Below are positions 21,203 to 60,714 of a stretch of DNA of 64,000 bases, one piece after another (the first letter of the stretch is position 1; each line of letters opens with the position of its first letter). The notes under the pieces are model-generated. The model searched no databases, had not been told where the DNA came from, and saw only the letters and a program-made list of their open reading frames with translations. The translations under genes were made by a program, and so were the position numbers. Source of the DNA: Deltaproteobacteria bacterium (GTDB lineage: Bacteria > Myxococcota_A > UBA9042 > DTJE01); NCBI GenBank assembly GCA_029547805.1, contig JAKPOP010000010.1, positions 209,675 through 273,674 on the forward strand, written 5' to 3'.

Positions 21203-21420
21203 TCCCGGGACCGATGCCCCCGTCCCGCTGCTCTCCGTCCCCCCTCCCCCGCCGGTCTCCAGTCGACCCGTTCCCGGCCCAAGGATGTCCGGTTCCGTCC
21301 TCCCGGAAGGGTCCGGCCAGCGAGGAATTGCGTCCCGAGCGCAGCGGCGCGGCCTTGAAAGGGTGGGTCCGCTCCTCTACACTGTCCGCGGTGTCTGCTT
21401 CCGTGGCTGGGAGGTGGCAA

Positions 21421-24400
21421 GTGCGAGGCAGGAACTGGTGGATGAGCGCGACGCTGGTGCTGCTGGTTGCCTGCGACCAGGGCGGAGGCGGTTCCACCGA
21501 CGCCCGGGACCCTGGACCGGGGGACACGGCCGACGAGATCCCGGACCTCCCGGTCGTCATCAACCCCGATGACGGCCCTCGGGACGTCCGCGAGACCCTG
21601 GTCGAGGACCAGGGTTCGGGGCCTGACGATGCGGGACCGGACCTCCCGGCGGACCCGGGTGGAGACACCCTCGAACCGGGGGCCCCGGGCTGGCCCTGCG
21701 AGAGGGCCTCGGAGTGCAACTCCCAGTACTGCATGGACTCCCCCGATGGGAGGGTCTGCGCACAGATCTGCATCACCGAGTGCCCGGAAGGGGCGCGGTG
21801 CCTCCAGGTCCAGCAGGTCCCGGACCCCATCTTCGCCTGTGTCTATGTGTTCGCACGACTCTGCCGCCCGTGCATCCAGGACGCCGACTGCGTGGTGCCC
21901 TACGTCCCGGGAACCTCGGGATGCGTCCCCGGGGACCTGGGGTCCTTCTGCGGGGCCTTCTGCAACCGGGACCAGGACTGCCCTGCCGACTTCGGCTGCC
22001 GCGAGGTCCGCCTGGCCGGCGGCCTCCAGGTGAACCAGTGCGTACGCCTCCAGGGAGAGTGCGGATGCAGCCAGGCGGCCATCGAGGCCAAGGGCTGGAC
22101 GGTGTGCTGGGTCGAGAACGAGTTCGGCCGCTGCCGGGGCCAGCGGCGCTGCGAGGAGAACGGCCTGACCCCCTGCGATGCGCCCACCCCGGCCCTGGAG
22201 GCCTGCGACGGGGTGGACAACGACTGCAATGGCGTCACCGACGATATCGAGTCGAAGCCCTGCCTGGTGCGGAACGAGTACGGGTCCTGCCCCGGGCTCT
22301 CGGGCTGCCGCCTGGGTCAGGAGATCTGCGTGGGGACGCCGGCGGCCCCGGAGGCCTGCGACGGGGTGGACAACGACTGCGACGGCCTCACCGACGAGGA
22401 GGATGCCTCAGGGTGCCGCACCTACTACAAGGACCAGGACCAGGACAACTACGGGGTCCTCCAGGACAACCGGTGCCTCTGCGCCCCGCAGGCCCCCTAC
22501 CGGACCACCGCGGCCGGGGACTGCGACGACGAGGACCCGGAGCGGCATCCCAACCTGGCCGAGTCCTGCGACGGCAAGGACAACAACTGCAACGGGGTCA
22601 CTGACGAGCCCGGGACCCAGGGGTGCACGACCTTCTATCGGGACGGCGACGGCGATGGCTACGGAGTCACGGCCGACTCCCAGTGCCTCTGCGTGGCGAC
22701 GGCCCCCTATCTGGCCACCCAGGGAGGCGACTGCAACGATCAGAACCTGGACGTCCACCCGGACGCCCTCGAGACCTGCAACAGCCGGGACGACGACTGT
22801 GATCGGTTGATTGATCCGGAGGGGTCATACAACTGCCAGTCCTATTACTACGACGGGGACGGCGACGGTTTCGGGGCCAGGAACCGCCCGGCCCGGTGCC
22901 TCTGCTGGCCCGACAGGGCGGGGAAGTACACCGCCCTGACGAACACGGACTGCAACGACGGCGACCGGCAGGTCAGCCCGGCGCAACTGGAGCAGTGCGA
23001 GGACGGCATCGACAACGACTGCGACGGATTCACCGACGAGCCGGGCGCACAGGGATGCACGAACCGGTGGATCGACGAGGACCGGGACGGGTGGGGTGGC
23101 GGGGATCCCCTGTGCACCTGCCAGGCCGAGGCTCCCTACCTGGTAGAACGGGGCGGCGACTGCCGGGACCGCGACGCCTCGATCAACCCCGGAGAGAGCG
23201 AAGCGTGCGGGGACGGCATCGACAACAACTGCAACGGGGCCACCGACGAGGAGGGGGCCTCGGGGTGCGTGAACCGATGGGAGGACCTCGACCGGGACGG
23301 GTACGGCCAGGGCAGCCCCCGCTGCCTGTGTGCCGTCGAAGGGACCTACACTGCCCGTTACGGAGGCGACTGCGACGAGAACGACGCCACCCGGAATCCC
23401 GGGGCCTTCGAGGTCTGCGACGGCATCGACAACAACTGCAACGACGTCGCCGACGAGGAGGACGCCATCGGCTGCTCGCCCTGGTACTACGACTTCGACG
23501 GCGACGGCCACGGGGCCGTCGGGTCGGGGCGCTGCCTCTGCGGGTCGGCAGGCTTCTACCGGTCCCAGGATGACCGGGACTGCAACGACCGGGACCCCGC
23601 CATCGGTCCCCAGGCCACCGAGGTCTGCAACGGGGTGGACGACAACTGCGACGGGGCCACCGACGAGGAGAACGCGCAGCAGTGCCAGTCGTATTTCTAC
23701 GATGGGGACCGGGACGGCTATGGGTCGATGGTGGTGGCGTCCCGCTGCCTCTGCGGCCCGGACATCCCCGGGAAGTTCGACACCCGGAACGGGGGCGACT
23801 GCGACGACGGCAATGCCAATGTCCGTCCCGATCAGCCCGAGGTCTGCGAGCCCGAGGGTCAGGCCTCCCGGGACGACAACTGCAACGGCATCCTGAACGA
23901 GGAGAACGCCCTTTACTGCCTGAACTACTACTACGACGGAGACCGGGACGGTCATGGGACGCCTGATCGGTCCCCCAGATGCTTCTGCTCGGGTGGCAAC
24001 GCCGCCCTGAAACATGACAGCCGGTTCTCGGACGACTGCGACGACAACGACCCGCTGACCTCCGGAGGCCTGCTGGAACGCTGCAGCGACGGCAAGGACA
24101 ACAACTGCAACGGGGCCACTGATGAGGAGGGCGGAACCGGATGCCTCCCCTACTACCGGGACAACGACCGGGACGGCTACGGGGCCATCGGGGACTACCG
24201 ATGCCTCTGCGCGCCGGACCCCCTGGGGGTCTATGTCGCCTCGGAGGGCGGGGATTGCGACGACATGGACGGCAACACCCACCCCGGCGGAGCGGTCTGC
24301 GGCAAGGACGGCAACTGCGACGAAGCGCCCCTGGACCCGGGCGAGGCCTGCGACGACGGCAACGCCGTGTCCTGGGACGGGTGCACGAACTGCCAGTTCT

Positions 24401-25545
24401 CGGAGATCCGGGTCAACTCGCCCTATGTGAACGACCAGGTGTACCCGGCGGTGGCCCCGCTGGCCTCCGGAGGATACGTGGTGACCTACCGGACGGACCG
24501 GATCTCCACGAGTTACGACGTCGCCTTCCGGCTGATCGATGACCAGGGGAACCTGGTCGGCACCACCGAAAGCACCGCCAATGCCACCACGGCGGGCACC
24601 CAGCAGTTCCCCTCGGTCGCCGCGCTGCCCGGTGGCGGTTTCGCGATCACGTGGGAGTCCCTGGGCCAGGATGGCGACGGGAGCGGCGTCTATGGCCGGG
24701 TCTTCAACGGCTCCGGCTCTGCGACAAGCGGTGAATTCCTGGTCAACGGGACCACGCTGCTGGACCAGAAGGCGCCCCGGGTCGGGGCCCGGCCCGACGG
24801 GTCCCTGGTCGTGACCTGGCAGTCCTGGCTCCAGGACGGCTCTGAGTGGGGGGTCTATCTGCGCCGCATGGGTGTCGATGGAGTCCCCCTGGGGCCCGAG
24901 ACCCGGGTGAACCAGACGACGGCGGGGCCCCAGGACCAGCCTCGGGTCGCGGTGCTGCCGGACAACCGGTTCGTGATCGCCTGGAGGGGGCTCGTGTCCC
25001 GTGGAGGCTCCTCCACGGACCGGGACATCTTCCTGCGGCGCTACCTGGCCGACGGGACCCCAGATGGCAACGAGTTCGTGGTCAACGCCACCACGACCAA
25101 CGACCAGCAGGTGCCGGGCGTGGCCCCCCTGGGCAGCGACCAGGTGATCGTCGTCTGGGAGTCCTCGGGACAGGACGGCAGCGGAACGGGGGTCTACGGG
25201 CGCATCGTGGGAATGGACGGCACCTTCAAGACCAACGAGTTCCGGGTGAACTCCTATGCCTTGCAGGACCAGGGGATTCCCGCGGTGGCCTCCAACGCCG
25301 CTGGCCAGTTCGTGGTGATCTGGCAGTCGGCCTACCAGGACGGCGACGGCCTCGGGGTCTACTACCAACGCTATGATGCGACCGGCACCCCCATCGGCCT
25401 GGAGACCCGGCCCCACCTCCAGACGGCCAACGACCAGGCCCAGCCGGTCATTGCCGCCCAGAGCCTCCACTTCCTGCCGGTCTGGGCCTCCTTCGGACAG
25501 GATGGTTCGGGGTGGGGGATCTTCGCCCGGCGCCAGACCTGGTAG
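21421..25545 (+). CDS. Giant secreted lipoprotein with 13 tandem MopE-like putative metal/calcium-binding Cys-rich repeats, one myxo disulfide repeat and seven 55-aa C-terminal repeats
   Basis: A GTG at 21421 (or the ATG at 21442) gives [18 protein letters not shown] with a lipobox. Repeats follow: C..YY.D.D.DG[YFW]G....C.C..P..Y......DCDD.D....P.A.E.CDG.DN[DN]C[DN]G.TDE, then [15 protein letters not shown], then VN.T...Q..P.VA.L..GGFVV.W.S..QDGSG.GVYGRR ×7. Clear third-position GC bias. Confidence 0.85.
22171..24396 (+). repeat. Tandem array of about 13 coding repeats (about 200 bp each) encoding the MopE-like Cys-rich modules
   Basis: The recurring nucleotide blocks tgcgacgg(g/c)gtggacaacgactgc(g/a)a(c/t)gg.gtcaccgacgag encode CDGVDNDC[ND]GxTDE. 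Confidence 0.8.
24412..25542 (+). repeat. Seven about 165 bp coding repeats (putative beta-propeller blades) at the 3' end of the giant gene
   Basis: Periodic protein motif ..VNxxTxxxQxxPxVAxLxxGGFVVxWxSxxQDGSGxGVYGRRF.. repeated seven times up to the C-terminus. Confidence 0.6.
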
Positions 25546-54578: not shown

Positions 54579-55478
54579 TCACTCGTCGGGGTCGAAGAAG
54601 TCCCTCCAGGGGTCCACCCTTCGGAAGTACAGCGTCAGGAAGCCGGCGGAGACCACCCGGCGCACCATGCCCATGTCGTTTTCCTGGGTCCGGTGGAGGC
54701 GGGTGGCCTCGGCCATGAAGTGGGCGCAGGAGAGGCCCGGGACGGCCGGGAGGGAGGCGTCGAAGGTGTGGGTGACGGGGCCGGGGTCGCCGCCCCCGCC
54801 GAGTCGAAAGACCCAGAAGCGGTTCTGCTGGAGGATGGTCCGGGCGACCCGGTGGGGCGAGAGGCCGGGGGTCTCGAAGGTGGGATCGGCAGCCTGCCGG
54901 ACGGCGAGGACGGCCAGGCGGGCGGTGAGCTGGTGCTCGGGATGGCCGGTGGCGCCGACGTATGGGTCGAAGGTGACGAGGAGGTCGGGGCGGAAGTCCC
55001 GGATGGCGGTGACGATGTCCCGGAGGGGGTCTCCCTGGGCGCGCCAGCGGGCGAGGATCTCCCGGCGGGGCGGGAAGGAGGAGACGGGCAAGGGGGCGTT
55101 CCAGTAGCGGTGGTGGTAGAGGCGGGCACGGTACATGCGGGCCACCTGAGCCATCTCCCGCCCGCGAACGGTGGCGAGGTCGGGTTCGCACCCGTCGGGG
55201 AGGCCGCACTCGCCGCCGTCGCCGTGGGTCATGACGACGAAGGCGAGGGGGTTCCGGTAATGGATGGAGGCCCGTGCCAGGAGGCCCCCGGGGAAGCACT
55301 CGTCGTCGGGGTGGGCGGCGACCCACATGGTGCGGGCGCCGGCGGCCAGGACGTCGTCGAGGGGCGGGTCAGTGGGGTCGGGTCGGCCCCGGCGGTCGGC
55401 ACCACCGCATCCGGCAATGGTTGCGAGGGGCCACAGCCCGGCGGCGACGGCCCTCTGGAGGAACGTTCTCCGGTCCAT
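54579..55478 (-). CDS. PIG-L/LmbE-family N-acetylglucosaminyl deacetylase with Tat-like signal
   Basis: MDRRTFLQRAVAAGLW (RR-x-FL twin-arginine motif). LmbE motifs WVAAHPDDE and HPEH. Confidence 0.8.
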   Translation of the reverse strand: MDRRTFLQRAVAAGLWPLATIAGCGGADRRGRPDPTDPPLDDVLAAGARTMWVAAHPDDECFPGGLLARASIHYRNPLAFVVMTHGDGGECGLPDGCEPDLATVRGREMAQVARMYRARLYHHRYWNAPLPVSSFPPRREILARWRAQGDPLRDIVTAIRDFRPDLLVTFDPYVGATGHPEHQLTARLAVLAVRQAADPTFETPGLSPHRVARTILQQNRFWVFRLGGGGDPGPVTHTFDASLPAVPGLSCAHFMAEATRLHRTQENDMGMVRRVVSAGFLTLYFRRVDPWRDFFDPDE

Positions 55479-55547
55479 GGGTCACCTCCGCCGGGATTCT
55501 AGCCCAGTTGGTCCGGGAGGACCGGGGGCCAGGGGACCCGGGCGCGG

Positions 55548-56432
55548 GGCGTCGGGGGCGGGGGGACCGGGGGCGGGGGGACCGGGGGCGGGGGGACCGG
55601 GGGCGGGGGGACCGGGGGCCGGGCCTCCGGACTCGACGTCGCCCCGGGGGCGCTGCCCCCGGGGCGCGTCTGCGCCTCGGCGCGCGCGAGGGCATCGATG
55701 GCCCCCGCAAGGTCGCGCGCGCCTCCGGAGCGTCCTCCGGGCCCTGCCCCCGGCCGCCCCGATGTGACGCCGTCTGGGTCACCGGAGCGCGGGGGCTGGG
55801 AGAGGTCGACGGTGGATTGGGAGAAGTGGGAGAGAACGGGTGGGGGTGTGGACAGGGACGAGGATACGCCGGAGTGGGGACCAGGGAGGAGGCTTCCTGG
55901 GACGTCGGGGGCGGGGGGACCGGGGGCCGGGCCTCCGGACTCGACGTCGCCCCGGGGGCGCTGCCCCCGGGGCGCGTCTGCAACCTCGGCGCGCGCGAGA
56001 GCATCGATGGCCCCCGCAAGGTCGCGCGCGCCTCCGGAGCGTCCTCCGGGCCCGGCCCCCGGCCCCCCCCCGATGTGACGCCGTCTGGGTCACCAGAGCG
56101 CGGGGGCTGGGAGAGGCCGACGGTGGATTGGGAGAAGTGGGAGAGGACGGCTGGGGGTGTGGACAGGGGCACGGATACGCCGGTGTGGGGGCCAGGGAGG
56201 AGGCTTCAGGGACGTCGGGGGCGGGGGGACCGGGGGCCGGGCCTCCGGACTCGACGTCGCCCCGGGGGCGCTGCCCCCGGGGCGCGTCTGCGCCTCGGCG
56301 CGCGCGAAAGCATCGATGACCCCCGCATGGTCGCGCGCGCCTCCGGAGCGTCCTCCGGGCCCGGCCCCCGGCCCCCCCGATGTGGCGCCGTCTGGATCAC
56401 CAGAGCGCAGGGGCTGGGAGAGGTCGGCGAGG
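55548..56432. repeat. Three tandem direct copies (third truncated) of an about 310 bp non-coding repeat
   Basis: Copy 1 is about 55548-55900, copy 2 is 55901-56210 and copy 3 is 56211 to about 56432. They are nearly identical. Each contains the 9-bp inverted repeat CCCCGGGGG-cgctg-CCCCCGGGG and alternating CGCGCGCG tracts. The block lies in the 1 kb divergent spacer between the PIG-L deacetylase and sbcD genes. Confidence 0.85.
55559..55618 (+). repeat. 15-nt minisatellite (CGGGGGGACCGGGGG)x4 forming a run of about nine G5-6 tracts (G-quadruplex-prone)
   Basis: The unit is present once in repeat copies 2 and 3 but expanded to four units in copy 1. Confidence 0.85.
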
Positions 56433-56488
56433 AGTGGGCAAGGATGATGTCCCACCGCCGTGCAAGAATGAGGCGATCCCGGAAGGGG

Positions 56489-57646
56489 AGGGACAAGATG
56501 CGGATCCTGCAGACCGGCGACTGGCATCTGGGACGGCGGCTGAAAGGGCTGGACCTGCTGGAGGACCAGCGGTTCGTGCTGGAACAGGTGATCGAGCATG
56601 TGGAACAGGAGCGACCGGACCTGGTGCTCATTGCGGGGGACATCTATGACCGGGCGGACCCTCCGGCGGCGGCGGTGGACCTGCTGGACGAGGTGCTGTC
56701 CCGCCTGGTGCTGGACCTGCATGTGCCGGTGGTGCTGCTGGCGGGCAACCACGACAGCCCGGAGCGGCTGGCCTTCTGCTCGGGCATCCTGAAGCGCCAG
56801 GGGCTGCGAATTGTCGGGGAGATCCCCGAGGCACCGGAACCCCTCGTGCTGGAGGACGAGGCGGGGCCGGTGCACCTGTTTGCCCTGCCCTACCTGGACC
56901 CGGAGCGGGTCCGGGAGGGACTCGGCCGAGACGACCTGAGGGGCCACCAGGCCGCGATGGAGATCGTGCTGGATCAGGTCCGACGGCAATGCCACGCCGG
57001 GGTCCGGACGGTGCTGGCGGGCCATGCCTTCGTCCAGGGCGGATGCTCCAGCGAGTCGGAGCGGCTGCTGACGGTGGGCGGATCGGGAGCAGTGGATGCC
57101 TCGCTCTTCGAGGGGTTCGACCATGTGGCGCTGGGACATTTGCACCGGCCGCAGTCGGTCGGCCCACGAATCCACTACGCCGGGTCGCTGCTGGCCTACT
57201 CGATCTCGGAGACGGACCACTCGAAGGGCTTTCTGTGGGTGGACCTGCCGGCCTCGGGACCGCCATCGGTCGCCCAGGTGCCCCTGACGCCAAGGCGCCG
57301 GCTGCGTCGGGTCCAGGGGACCTTCCAGCAGGTGATGGACGGAGCCAGGCAGGATGAGGACCGGGAGGACCTCATCGTGGCGGTGCTGACAGACCCGGCA
57401 CCGGTCCCGGACGCGATCGGGCGCCTGCGGCAACACTACCCGAATACGTTGCACCTGGAATGGGAGGCGCTGGAGCACCCGGTCGGCGGCAGCACGGTCT
57501 CGAGAGAGGTGCTCCGGCTGGACCCGCTCTCTCTGTTCCAGCGGTTCTACCAGGAGGTCACCGGAAGGCCGATGGACGAGGCGGCCACGGCCCTGCTGGG
57601 CCCGGTGGTGGAACGGGCGATGCGGCCCGGGGAGGAGGCCCGATGA
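56489..57646 (+). CDS. sbcD: Exonuclease SbcCD, nuclease subunit D (Mre11-like)
   Basis: MRILQTGDWHLG.. and LIAGDIYD and LLAGNHD and GHLH phosphoesterase motifs. The stop overlaps the sbcC ATG (ATGA). Upstream parts of the 790-aa track ORF run through the repeats and are rejected. Confidence 0.9.
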   Translation, partial: RDKMRILQTGDWHLGRRLKGLDLLEDQRFVLEQVIEHVEQERPDLVLIAGDIYDRADPPAAAVDLLDEVLSRLVLDLHVPVVLLAGNHDSPERLAFCSGILKRQGLRIVGEIPEAPEPLVLEDEAGPVHLFALPYLDPERVREGLGRDDLRGHQAAMEIVLDQVRRQCHAGVRTVLAGHAFVQGGCSSESERLLTVGGSGAVDASLFEGFDHVALGHLHRPQSVGPRIHYAGSLLAYSISETDHSKGFLWVDLPASGPPSVAQVPLTPRRRLRRVQGTFQQVMDGARQDEDREDLIVAVLTDPAPVPDAIGRLRQHYPNTLHLEWEALEHPVGGSTVSREVLRLDPLSLFQRFYQEVTGRPMDEAATALLGPVVERAMRPGEEAR

Positions 57647-60600
57647 TCCCGATCCGACTGACGGTGCAGGCATTCGGACCCTACGTCCAGCGCCAGGTGG
57701 TGGACTTCGGGCCGGCCCGGGACGCCGGGGTGTTCCTGGTCCACGGACCGACGGGAGCCGGCAAGACCACGCTGTTCGATGCGATCTGTTACGCCCTCTA
57801 CGGGCAGTCGTCGGGGGCGGAACGGACCGACCAGCAGATGCGCAGCCAACTGGCGCCATCGACCCTGCGAACCGAGGTGGAACTGGAGTTCGCGCTGGGG
57901 GAGTGGCACTACCGCTGCTGGCGTTCGCCGACCTGGGATCGCCCGGCCCTCCGGGGCCAGGGGACCACGAAGGCCAAGGCGGAGGCCCACCTCCATCGAC
58001 GGCCCGCCGGCGGGACCGGGGAGTGGTCCCTGTTGCAGACGGGCGACGGCAAGGTCACGGAGGCCATCCAGGCGGTGTTGGGCTTCACGGCGGAGGAGTT
58101 CCGGCAGGTGATCCTGATCCCCCAGGGGCAGTTCCGGAGCCTGCTGGTCGCCGAGGTGAAGGATCGGGAGCACATCCTGGGCAACCTCTTCAATACGGCC
58201 CTCTACCGCCGCATCGAGGAGGAGTTGAAGGCCGAGACGGCCCGCCGGCAGACGGAATTCCGGACCCTCGAGGAGCGCCATCAGACCTTGCTCGGGACCG
58301 GCGACGTGGCGTCCCTGGAGGACCTGGAACAGCGGATACGGCAGCGGCAGGTCGAACTGGAGACGATGCAGGCGGGGGTGAAGCAGCGACGGGACAGCCT
58401 CCAGTCGGCCAGGGCTGCCGCCGAGGAGGGCCGGCGGGTCCGGGGGATCTTCGAGGAGGCCCGCCGGGCCAGGCGACGCCTGGAGGACCTGGAGCAGCGC
58501 CGTGAGGAGATCGGATCGCAGAAGGCCCTGCTGGAGAGGGCTCGCCGGGCCCTGACCCTGAACGACCTGGCCGATGGGCTGCATCGGCTGCGCCAGCAGG
58601 CCGAACAGCGCCGGGAGGACCTGTCGAGGGCGAACCGGGACCTGGAGGAGGCCCGGCTGGCGCTGGACCTGGCCCGGGACGGCCTGGAACGACAGCGGGC
58701 GAACGTCCCGGAGACCGAGGCGATGGAGCGGGCTCTGGTCGAGCTCAAGGAGATGGGACCGCGCCTCCAGGCCCTGGAACAGGCCGAGGGGGAGGTCCAG
58801 GCGGCGGAAGAACGGCTGACGGCGGCGGAGGAACGGCTCCGGGCGGCCCGGGAGGGCCTGGAGGCCCTGGAGCAGGAGATGCGGGGGCTGGACCGGACCA
58901 TCGAGGCCCTGGACCCCCTGGCCGAGGACAAGGCCCGACGGGGGTCGATCCGGGACCAGCAGGTCCAGCAGCGGAACCTCCGCAGGCGCCTGGGCGAACT
59001 GCAGGATCAGCACCGGACCCTGGAAAAGCGGCTTCAGCGGCAGGCCGACCAGGAGCGGATGGCCTCCGCCGGGCTGGAGCAGGCCCGTCGCACGCTGGAG
59101 GAGGCCCTGGAGGTCCAGCGTCGGGAGATGGCCGCGGTGCTGGCGGCCCGGCTGGTCCCGGGCGATCCCTGCCCGGTCTGCGGATCGACCTCCCATCCGG
59201 CCCCGGCCCCGATCCGGGAGAACCTGCCCGATGGGGCGCTGCTGGACCGCCTCCGGCAGGAGGCCGATGCCGCCGCGGAGACCTGGAAGGTCGCATCGGA
59301 CGAGATGCTGCGCATCCAGGAGCAGTGGAAGGCCCTGGGCCAGCGCATCGAGGAGATGGTCCAGGACCTGGGAGAAGCCGCCGGGGCCTCCCTGGAGGAA
59401 CTGGAGGCCCGCTGCCAGGAGGCCGAACAGCAGGTCCGGGAGGCGGAAGAGGCCGCCCGTCGGCTGGCCGAGGCCCGAACCCGGCGGCGGGAGGCGGAGA
59501 CCCGGCTGGAGCAGGGACGGGAGGTCCTGGAGGCCATCCAGGGTCAGGTCCAGGAGGCCCGGTCGGCCCGGGACCGGGCAGCGGCCCTCCGGCAGGAGCG
59601 GCAGGCCGGCCTGCCCCCGGGGAGGGACCGAGGGACCTGGGAACAGCAGGTCGCCGAGTCCCGCGCGGCCCTCGCGGCAAGGAAGCAGGCCCTGGAGAAG
59701 GCGGAACAGTCGTTCCGGGAGGCATCGGCCCGATGGACCGGTGCCGAGGCGCGTCAGACCGCGGCGGCGACCGAGTCCGATCGGACCGCATCGGAACTCG
59801 AGGAGATGGATCGTCGCTTCCAGGAGCGGCTCCGAGAGCAGGGCTTCATGACCCCCGAGGAGTGGTCGGCGGCGCGGCTGGCGCCGGATGGGCTGGCGGC
59901 CCTGGAGGAGCAGATCCAGGGCTGGGTGCGGGACGTGGTCCAGGCCCAGGGGGACGTGGACCGCCTGGAGGCCGGGGTGGCGGGTCTGCAGGAGCCGGAC
60001 GTGGCGGCCCTGGAGGCCGCCGAGGCCGAGGCCCTGGCAGGGCTGGAGGCGGCTCAGGCCGCCGCGGCCCAGGCGGTGGCGGACCAGGAGCGGGACCAGG
60101 ACCTGGCAACCCGGCTGCGGCAGGTCCAATCCGAGCAGAAGGCGATCGAGGAGAGGCTCCGAGGCATGGAGAGGTTGTCCGGGGTGGCCAGGGGCGAGAA
60201 CCCCGTCAAGTTGTCCTTCCACGACTTCGTGCTGGGCCTGCTGCTGGATCAGGTCCTGGAGGCGGCGAACCTGCGTTTGAAGGTCATGAGCCGGGGCCGT
60301 TTCCAGTTGTTCCGACGAAGGGTTCCGGCGGACCGCCGGAAGCGGGAGGGGTTGTCCCTGGACGTCGAGGACGGCTACAGCGGCAGCCTCCGGGCCGTGC
60401 ACACCCTGTCGGGCGGCGAGTCCTTCCAGGCGGCCCTGGCCCTGTCCCTGGGACTGGCGGACGTCGTGCAGCAGCGGGCCGGCGGCATCCGGCTCGAGAC
60501 CCTCTTCCTGGACGAGGGCTTCGGCAACCTGGACGCCGAGGCCCGGGAGGAGGCCTGGAACCACCTGGCGGAGATGTCCGGCCGCGAGGGCGGCCGCCTG

Positions 60601-60714
60601 GTGGGCATCATCTCCCACATGGAGGACCTGAAGGCCCTGTGTCCCCGGCGCCTCGAGGTCCGGTCCGGCCCCGCCGGCGCCACGGTCCGCTGGAGCCATG
60701 CCCCGGTCCCCTAG
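57643..60714 (+). CDS. sbcC: Exonuclease SbcCD, ATPase subunit C (Rad50-like)
   Basis: Walker A FLVHGPTGAGKTTLFDA. A long coiled coil has a central CPVCGS zinc hook. C-terminal signature LSGGESFQAALALSLGL and D-loop LFLDEGFGNLD. Confidence 0.9.
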   Translation: MIPIRLTVQAFGPYVQRQVVDFGPARDAGVFLVHGPTGAGKTTLFDAICYALYGQSSGAERTDQQMRSQLAPSTLRTEVELEFALGEWHYRCWRSPTWDRPALRGQGTTKAKAEAHLHRRPAGGTGEWSLLQTGDGKVTEAIQAVLGFTAEEFRQVILIPQGQFRSLLVAEVKDREHILGNLFNTALYRRIEEELKAETARRQTEFRTLEERHQTLLGTGDVASLEDLEQRIRQRQVELETMQAGVKQRRDSLQSARAAAEEGRRVRGIFEEARRARRRLEDLEQRREEIGSQKALLERARRALTLNDLADGLHRLRQQAEQRREDLSRANRDLEEARLALDLARDGLERQRANVPETEAMERALVELKEMGPRLQALEQAEGEVQAAEERLTAAEERLRAAREGLEALEQEMRGLDRTIEALDPLAEDKARRGSIRDQQVQQRNLRRRLGELQDQHRTLEKRLQRQADQERMASAGLEQARRTLEEALEVQRREMAAVLAARLVPGDPCPVCGSTSHPAPAPIRENLPDGALLDRLRQEADAAAETWKVASDEMLRIQEQWKALGQRIEEMVQDLGEAAGASLEELEARCQEAEQQVREAEEAARRLAEARTRRREAETRLEQGREVLEAIQGQVQEARSARDRAAALRQERQAGLPPGRDRGTWEQQVAESRAALAARKQALEKAEQSFREASARWTGAEARQTAAATESDRTASELEEMDRRFQERLREQGFMTPEEWSAARLAPDGLAALEEQIQGWVRDVVQAQGDVDRLEAGVAGLQEPDVAALEAAEAEALAGLEAAQAAAAQAVADQERDQDLATRLRQVQSEQKAIEERLRGMERLSGVARGENPVKLSFHDFVLGLLLDQVLEAANLRLKVMSRGRFQLFRRRVPADRRKREGLSLDVEDGYSGSLRAVHTLSGGESFQAALALSLGLADVVQQRAGGIRLETLFLDEGFGNLDAEAREEAWNHLAEMSGREGGRLVGIISHMEDLKALCPRRLEVRSGPAGATVRWSHAPVP

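Follow-up and report, generated by a model that had tools for sequence, protein, structure and literature searches.

Does a palindrome-rich tandem repeat directly upstream of the genes for a hairpin-processing nuclease have anything to do with that nuclease? The question is raised by a stretch of 64,000 nucleotides from a deltaproteobacterium (contig JAKPOP010000010.1; the whole stretch is called the window here), in which a reading made from the sequence alone had noticed near-identical repeat copies between a deacetylase gene and sbcDC. We consider it rather probable that an interspersed, non-coding mosaic repeat specific to this lineage occupies several loci, of which this array is one, and that the array's adjacency to sbcDC is coincidental.

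The genes and control sequences on the two sides of the array are as follows (L numbers are our handles for the public contigs compared).

54579-55478, minus strand: PIG-L family gene (GlcNAc-PI de-N-acetylase-like), divergent from sbcD (Pfam PF02585, E=5e-16).
55479-55513, minus strand: unique 35-nt PIG-L leader with the Shine-Dalgarno sequence GGAGGTG and a TAGAAT -10-like hexamer (sequence reading).
56449-56493, plus strand: sbcD-proximal block of 45 nt, GTCCCACC-N3-GTGCAAGAAT..GGAAGGGGAGGGA, outside the array (local alignments to L010 and L011).
56498-57646, plus strand: sbcD, the Mre11-like nuclease subunit (Pfam Metallophos and SbcD_C).
57643-60714, plus strand: sbcC, the Rad50-like ATPase subunit (Pfam AAA_23 and SbcC_Walker_B; start from public gene calls).

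The PIG-L gene, which has a GC3 of 0.92, also flanks the array in L001 and in L013-L015, and in the relative L010 it neighbours sbcD too. Its leader is a putative promoter, with no full sigma-70 match in the consensus scan. On the other side, the 45-nt block is conserved in relatives whose SbcD is 74-80% identical, while nothing else in the intergenic region can be aligned; the block probably comprises the sbcD promoter/operator and the ribosome-binding site. This conserved block lies outside the array, and the sbcD control region is therefore likely to be untouched. The sbcC coordinates follow a 1023-aa gene call taken from L001, whose start overlaps the sbcD stop by 4 nt (57643-57646), an arrangement that suggests translational coupling of the two genes. 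The first in-frame ATG, at 57460, would give an alternative sbcC product of 1084 aa.

The window carries ordinary chromosomal genes, including ligA, GAPDH, PFOR and TonB/ExbD genes, and the roughly 40 window genes tested include no transposase, RAYT, Cas protein, reverse transcriptase or integrase. Its SbcD is 100% identical to HOU54366.1 and HQK51239.1 (NCBI 'Myxococcota bacterium'). Contigs bearing this SbcD reach 889 kb and come from anaerobic-digester and sludge metagenomes. In contrast to the array between PIG-L and sbcD, another tandem repeat of the window is coding: positions 21214-25545 (plus strand) encode a protein of 1443 aa built from at least eight Cys-rich repeats in tandem, each of about 70 aa, with a DNA period of 207-234 bp. 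The protein has a match (E=6e-79) to Pfam PF11617, the MopE-type 'putative metal-binding motif'.

The intergenic distance between the divergent PIG-L and sbcD genes is 1019 bp, and it is filled by the array together with a minisatellite at the array's left edge, much as the sequence-only reading had it when it placed the repeat in a divergent gap of about 1 kb between the deacetylase gene and sbcDC. Its count of two full and one partial tandem copy of a unit of about 310 bp is also correct. Tandem Repeats Finder (TRF) reports a period of 309, 2.7 copies and 94% matches over 55598-56423 (score 1478), and alignment gives anchor-to-anchor spacings of 308 and 310 bp between successive units, the third unit being cut after about 230 bp. 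The units are set apart by 1- and 2-nt indels and by diagnostic substitutions. Weak similarity, judged by eye, possibly runs about 25 nt past position 56432. The parts of the array are listed below.

55514-55623, plus strand: G-rich minisatellite of CGGGGGGACCGGGGG, four perfect copies and further degenerate ones (TRF, period 15).
55596-55762, plus strand: core module copy 1, a self-complementary, predicted three-way junction (nhmmer module profile, E=1e-41).
55640-55666, no strand: hairpin with a perfect 12-bp stem and a 3-nt loop (exact match).
55763-55900, plus strand: G/A-rich linker copy 1, A type (alignment, unit comparison).
55901-56072, plus strand: core module copy 2 (inverted-repeat search, fold).
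56073-56210, plus strand: G/A-rich linker copy 2, B type, unstructured (fold, composition).
56211-56380, plus strand: core module copy 3 (nhmmer, E=9e-44).
56381-56432, plus strand: truncated linker, the end of the array (alignment).

Each unit begins with an extremely GC-rich, self-complementary core of about 167 nt (for example 55906-56072), and a G-rich linker of about 137 nt makes up the rest. In core copy 2, the G-arm GGGGGGACCGGGGGCCGGGCC (55913-55933) pairs with a C-arm located 115 nt downstream (56049-56069); the two arms are 21 nt each and 95% complementary in the inverted-repeat search, and their pairing is predicted to close a three-way junction with inner hairpins at 55943-55978 and 55989-56033. 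The hairpin CGCCCCGGGGGC-GCT-GCCCCCGGGGCG recurs identically at 55948-55974 and 56258-56284, so that there is exactly one per unit. Its stem is made up entirely of G-C pairs and can be extended to 16 bp, and dinucleotide shuffles of the window contained no match to the 12-bp hairpin. The perfect 9-bp inverted repeat that had been reported from the sequence is real, but it is longer than described and forms the centre of this 12-bp stem and 3-nt loop. The Z-DNA-like (CG)n tracts reported with it are likewise present, as (CG)4-5, but they are better read as the arms of the second inner hairpin.

The core folds with a z score of -6.1 as DNA and -5.6 as RNA, and none of 200 shuffles was as stable. 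The linker, with 52% G and 19% C, has a fold z score of +0.17 and is unstructured. Both strands of the core fold, as expected of a DNA palindrome, and the model makes the core strongly cruciform-capable. The 15-bp repeat CGGGGGGACCGGGGG, which spans 55514-55623 in 7.3 copies according to TRF, is a nested expansion of the core's G-arm. It has nine matches in the window against 0.56 expected, and its copy number is equal in L001, L014 and L015. The minisatellite holds three G-quadruplex motifs (regular-expression matches, 55515-55603), and the 1-kb gap as a whole contains 6 of the 13 plus-strand G-quadruplex motifs of the 64-kb window. The core-plus-linker anatomy, the pairing of the 21-nt arms, the minisatellite and the G-quadruplex motifs were absent from the sequence-only reading.

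The array DNA is non-coding. Its GC content by codon phase is flat (0.81/0.75/0.83), compared with a GC3 of 0.87-0.96 and a GC2 of about 0.45 in the genes of the window, and none of the unit lengths of 308, 310 and 247 bp is a multiple of three. Two long open reading frames traverse the array, neither of them matching a Pfam family, and a search of the array translation against 1.84 billion proteins returned one low-complexity match only, to the 15-mer tract. One frame is open from 55274 into sbcD, as can be expected by chance at a GC content of 75%. In public annotations the arrays are covered by predicted 'proteins' of 70-252 aa (L021 9211-9969, L022 2-742, L014 3-365 and L015 1-213), none of them with a Pfam match; these calls are likely to be spurious open reading frames of high-GC repeat DNA. 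The period, the flat codon-phase composition and the missing Pfam matches bear out the lack of coding capacity that had been supposed at the outset.

Structured RNA families gave no match either, the whole window having no match in Rfam 15 at gathering thresholds and, at a permissive threshold, only a chance miRNA match (E=0.34). Compensatory changes were seen at none of the 57 predicted core pairs, and the changes observed break pairs, in a covariation test that has no power at the 90% or higher identity of the core copies. A consensus scan found no sigma-70-like promoter or intrinsic terminator. The array had also been said to have no CRISPR-like organisation of repeats and spacers, and this holds: CRISPR repeats are short (23-55 bp), with unique spacers between them and usually with cas genes, and the linkers here are 93-99% identical between units. 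A CRISPR array was rejected on the grounds that there are no unique spacers and no Cas domains among the neighbours, and readings as integron attC sites, a retron msr/msd or the ends of an insertion sequence were rejected because there are no cassettes, reverse transcriptase, integrase or transposase nearby.

The PIG-L/sbcD array is not an assembly artefact, since its junctions are identical in at least six independent public assemblies and recur across JGI, ENA, NCBI and Logan data. The arrangements at this locus are:

L001 (JGI contig): one full unit plus the terminal partial unit (1.7), gap of 709 bp.
Window: two full units plus the partial unit (2.7).
L014: at least three full units, then the end of the contig.
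L002, L012 and L015: contig breaks inside the array.

Diagnostic substitutions divide the units into types A, B, B' and a terminal type T. Because the units carry these substitutions, the assemblies represent distinct alleles or arrangements rather than simple collapse, with copy numbers that, being drawn from mixed populations assembled from short metagenome reads, could partly be assembly choices.

The sequence-only reading had proposed looking for copies elsewhere, and this search revealed a small interspersed family with three loci in the same species, within about 100 kb of sequence read from it. A metagenome scan with the hairpin identified cores 90-94% identical to those of the window in the arrays of L005-L009. 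In these arrays the core is combined with another G-rich linker, and the period is 245-247 bp (versus 308/310 bp at sbcD). The two linker types align no better than shuffled sequences (score 26.5 versus 28 +/- 6), giving no sign of homology. Exact-protein look-up identified the CarA beside the L005 array as HOU54872.1/HQK52187.1 and the alpha-2-macroglobulin (A2M) beside the L009 array as HOU55271.1/HQK52567.1. L005 and L007 are the two sides of one locus, a divergent gap in which the array lies between FKBP (minus strand) and carA (plus strand), and a TTGACA-17-TAGGCT promoter sits between the array and carA. The A2M array follows the stop codon of A2M and precedes a small lipoprotein-like gene, in a region that is not divergent. 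ENA contig k141_114018 (ERZ27257440) carries both the sbcD and the A2M arrays, about 117 kb apart. Judged by these protein and contig matches, which place all three loci in one MAG accession series, the sbcD, carA/FKBP and A2M arrays belong to one species.

Copy number differs between assemblies at the other two loci as well. The carA locus has two cores in L021 and at least three in L005; the A2M locus has one core plus a core-less unit in L030, at least two cores in L009 and at least three in L031. In the core-less unit (L030 11100-11215), linker is joined to linker where GGCCCGGGG meets GAGGTGGTCG, and other assemblies retain a core at this position. The loss looks like a hairpin-mediated deletion. 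The cores are direct repeats at all three loci, and all three arrays stop 65-235 nt upstream of a start codon. The gene downstream of the A2M array (L030 11450-11851) encodes 133 aa with a lipoprotein-type signal, MRRWLMLLSLVLLGGAGC; its GC content is visibly below that of its surroundings, and the relative L029 lacks it at the corresponding position.

A fourth array, in the sister-metagenome contig L006, has an IS-like fragment nearby. This contig has three short palindromes of the form GGACGTG..CACGTCC, followed by GATAG, at about 170-200, 395-425 and 860-880, and at its end (1-110) an open reading frame fragment, ..RKREVVIRMLRGESIEALSRELSV, that resembles the helix-turn-helix N-terminus of an IS transposase. 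The palindromes and the fragment could be a second repeat family or the end of an insertion sequence. Among 185,579 species genomes, the 27-nt hairpin had one match, to the hairpin alone in Streptomyces; because this was the sole match, the arrays of the window species are absent from that collection. Exact matches to 25-27 nt of the hairpin, lacking the rest of the core, occur in L003 (4866-4892, Streptomyces sp. JH14), L004 (17-41) and L008 (2471-2495), and these are presumably independent GC-rich hairpins. Searches of viral contigs and, by blastn, of plasmids and phages gave no match to the repeat.

Relatives lack the element at the orthologous sites. In L010 (MAG GCA_020047475.1), whose SbcD is 80% identical, the synteny of PIG-L, sbcD and sbcC is kept, with a PIG-L/sbcD gap of 254 bp in which the core module profile was not found. 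A candidate relic of core and linker in L010, GGCCCGGCC..CCGAGGGA, was rejected, since shuffled sequences give local scores of up to 40 and this stretch has 36. The core is also absent from the carA site of L016-L020 (CarA 72-77% identical) and from the A2M site of L029 (A2M 90% identical) and L026 (66%).

In the explanation we prefer, a unit of core and G-rich linker would have been amplified head to tail in intergenic DNA. The arrays would expand and contract by unequal homologous recombination or by replication slippage between units that are about 94% identical, the 15-bp tract would change its length by slippage, and slippage across the base of the hairpin would occasionally delete a core. 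New loci could be reached by non-autonomous mobilisation or ectopic recombination; we infer mobility from patchy presence only. The arrays would be tolerated since they lie outside the flanking promoters, and the promoter-proximal blocks outside the arrays at the sbcD and carA loci count in favour of this explanation. At most, such hairpins may be substrates of SbcCD throughout the genome. The repeat looks like ordinary selfish or neutral DNA.

Counting against the preferred explanation, the core, its loops included, is far better conserved than the linker. This difference could reflect function rather than recent spread or homogenisation. Further points against it are that no mobilising enzyme, target-site duplication, solo copy or defined element end was found, that the documented loci number three, and that the copy numbers could partly be assembly choices. 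There is a small chance that the core is the cis-acting heart of an undescribed non-autonomous element, or a new structured RNA gene in tandem copies. If such an element existed, head-to-tail concatemers might arise through a circular or rolling-circle intermediate, and their spread would explain both the arbitrary phase of the array ends and the occurrence of cores with different linkers. For either the element or the RNA gene, the conservation of core over linker would mean function and not recent spread.

The proposal that the array is functionally tied to SbcCD, as substrate, decoy, regulatory region or recombination hotspot, draws on its position beside sbcDC and on its stems of 12-16 bp, which are within the range cleavable by E. 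coli SbcCD in vitro according to PMC3733652, which cites Connelly 1999. However, the same species has its two other arrays beside carA/FKBP and A2M, the 254-bp region upstream of sbcDC in the 80%-identical relative L010 is without the repeat, and the array does not include the conserved block next to sbcD. The tie is largely refuted by this distribution and we regard it as highly improbable, so that the sequence-only reading's interest in the placement beside SbcCD was not rewarded. Because stems of 12-16 bp can be cleaved in vitro, SbcCD may, by analogy with the E. coli enzyme, contribute to the instability of such cores anywhere in the genome. A cis-acting role in DNA topology or protein binding is a different proposal and in our judgment an unlikely one. 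Cruciform-, Z-DNA- and G-quadruplex-prone arrays upstream of promoters could absorb the negative supercoils of divergent transcription or, like the BIMEs of E. coli, recruit gyrase or nucleoid proteins, and in this way insulate or tune the neighbouring promoters. Two of the three loci are divergent promoter regions (the window and L021), all three arrays end at the distances from a start codon given above, the core is predicted to form cruciforms readily, nearly half of the plus-strand G-quadruplex motifs are concentrated in this 1 kb, and BIMEs and REPs are reported in PMC2817692 as binding sites for several proteins. Yet relatives have the same gene pairs without arrays, which makes the arrays dispensable. 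Their copy number is free to vary, there is no divergent gap at the third locus, and two divergent sites out of three is not a significant number. We know of no protein that binds the arrays.

A tandemly repeated gene for a structured non-coding RNA, in which one strand of the 167-nt three-way junction is transcribed and acts as an RNA, would account for a fold that is very stable and well defined and for a core that is conserved across loci down to its loop sequences when the linker is not. Against it stand the empty Rfam searches at both thresholds, the absence of compensatory changes among 57 pairs and the pair-breaking changes seen instead, the lack of promoter- or terminator-like sites, folding of both strands as in any DNA palindrome, and the clean loss of the core from one unit at the A2M locus (L030); we consider such a gene quite doubtful. 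The remaining proposal, that the array is an assembly artefact or a real or decayed protein-coding repeat, could appeal to the several contigs that break inside arrays, to the open reading frames that gene callers place over them and to the frame open from 55274 into sbcD. It is hard to reconcile with junctions shared among JGI, ENA, NCBI and Logan assemblies, with diagnostic substitutions that order the units, with a period that is not a multiple of three and DNA without codon-phase signal, and with the absence of any Pfam or library homologue save the one low-complexity match, and we give it almost no weight.

The coincidental, interspersed mosaic repeat that we favour reveals no new SbcCD-linked system and is of modest practical use. 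Short-read assemblies of this uncultured digester and sludge bacterium are broken by the family, many contigs ending in the repeat, and it draws spurious gene calls. Its arrays are ready-made VNTR markers for the tracking of strains across samples. It is a large-unit, high-GC addition to the bacterial mosaic repeats, with cruciform, (CG)n and G-quadruplex potential in a 167-nt core, and it may be useful as a natural system in which to study the influence of palindrome-processing enzymes on the stability of repeats.

Several known repeat families resemble parts of this one. The likeness to MITEs and to the large imperfect palindromes of the ERIC/IRU type lies in a core of about 170 nt with inverted arms of 21 nt (95% complementary) at its two ends, as terminal inverted repeats would be, and in its non-autonomous nature and patchy presence among close relatives. 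However, MITEs are not normally amplified in tandem along with a linker, and the array ends are found 12-45 nt before the G-arm and 15-55 nt after the C-arm or inside the core, rather than at the arms. No target-site duplication (flanking direct repeats), solo copy or partner insertion sequence was seen at the arrays examined, in a comparison for which the empty sites of relatives are too diverged to align. The suggestion that this is a satellite or MITE-like element stands as to its repeat nature, but the element is not a classical MITE, given array ends at variable points in the linker and the lack of any observed target duplication, solo copy or partner transposase.

The BOX elements of Streptococcus pneumoniae and the RIME elements of Sinorhizobium are modular intergenic mosaics with stable predicted structure, and the number of tandem copies of one of their modules varies. 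Their module sizes, sequences and GC content are unlike those found here, and the defined A and C end modules of BOX have no counterpart in these arrays. The MIRU/VNTR minisatellites of Mycobacterium tuberculosis, which Supply and coworkers reportedly described in 1997 and 2000, are said to form head-to-tail arrays at several intergenic loci and to be polymorphic in copy number. MIRU units are 40-100 bp long, are not palindromic and often contain small open reading frames in phase with the neighbouring genes. As with MIRUs, one family forms head-to-tail arrays here at several intergenic loci of one genome, and its copy number differs between (short-read) assemblies at every locus. In contrast to MIRUs, the units are 247-310 bp, have a large palindromic core and come from another phylum, making the family an analogue and not a member.

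The BIMEs of E. coli and its relatives, which are clusters of REPs, share with this family a non-coding, intergenic, GC-rich palindromic module, alternative non-palindromic linker motifs and tandem clusters whose numbers vary between strains. They differ in the size of the palindrome, REPs being 20-40 bp long and the conserved core here 167 nt, although its inner hairpin taken alone (27-35 nt) would fit, and in orientation, which alternates in BIMEs whereas the cores here are all direct. The unpaired GTAG/CGTC tag is missing, no RAYT occurs among the roughly 40 window genes and there is no sequence similarity. REPs number tens to hundreds of copies per genome, while few loci of this family are known in the roughly 100 kb read. 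The REPs described by Di Nocera et al. 2013 (PMC3733652) have an unpaired CGTC tag, stems of 8-9 bp that open with A-T pairs, loops of 4-5 nt and a CCA tail. Here, too, CGTC directly precedes a GC-rich hairpin (GACGTCGCCCCGGGGGC...), but it is paired in the extended stem, the stem has 12 G-C pairs, the loop has 3 nt and there is no CCA tail. Membership of the CGTC-REP or GTAG-REP families was rejected on this geometry of tag, stem, loop and tail. The array represents a sequence family that is new but belongs to a known kind, the bacterial mosaic and minisatellite repeats, and is unusual among them in its large core, its stacked non-B-DNA motifs, its nested minisatellite and its two types of linker.
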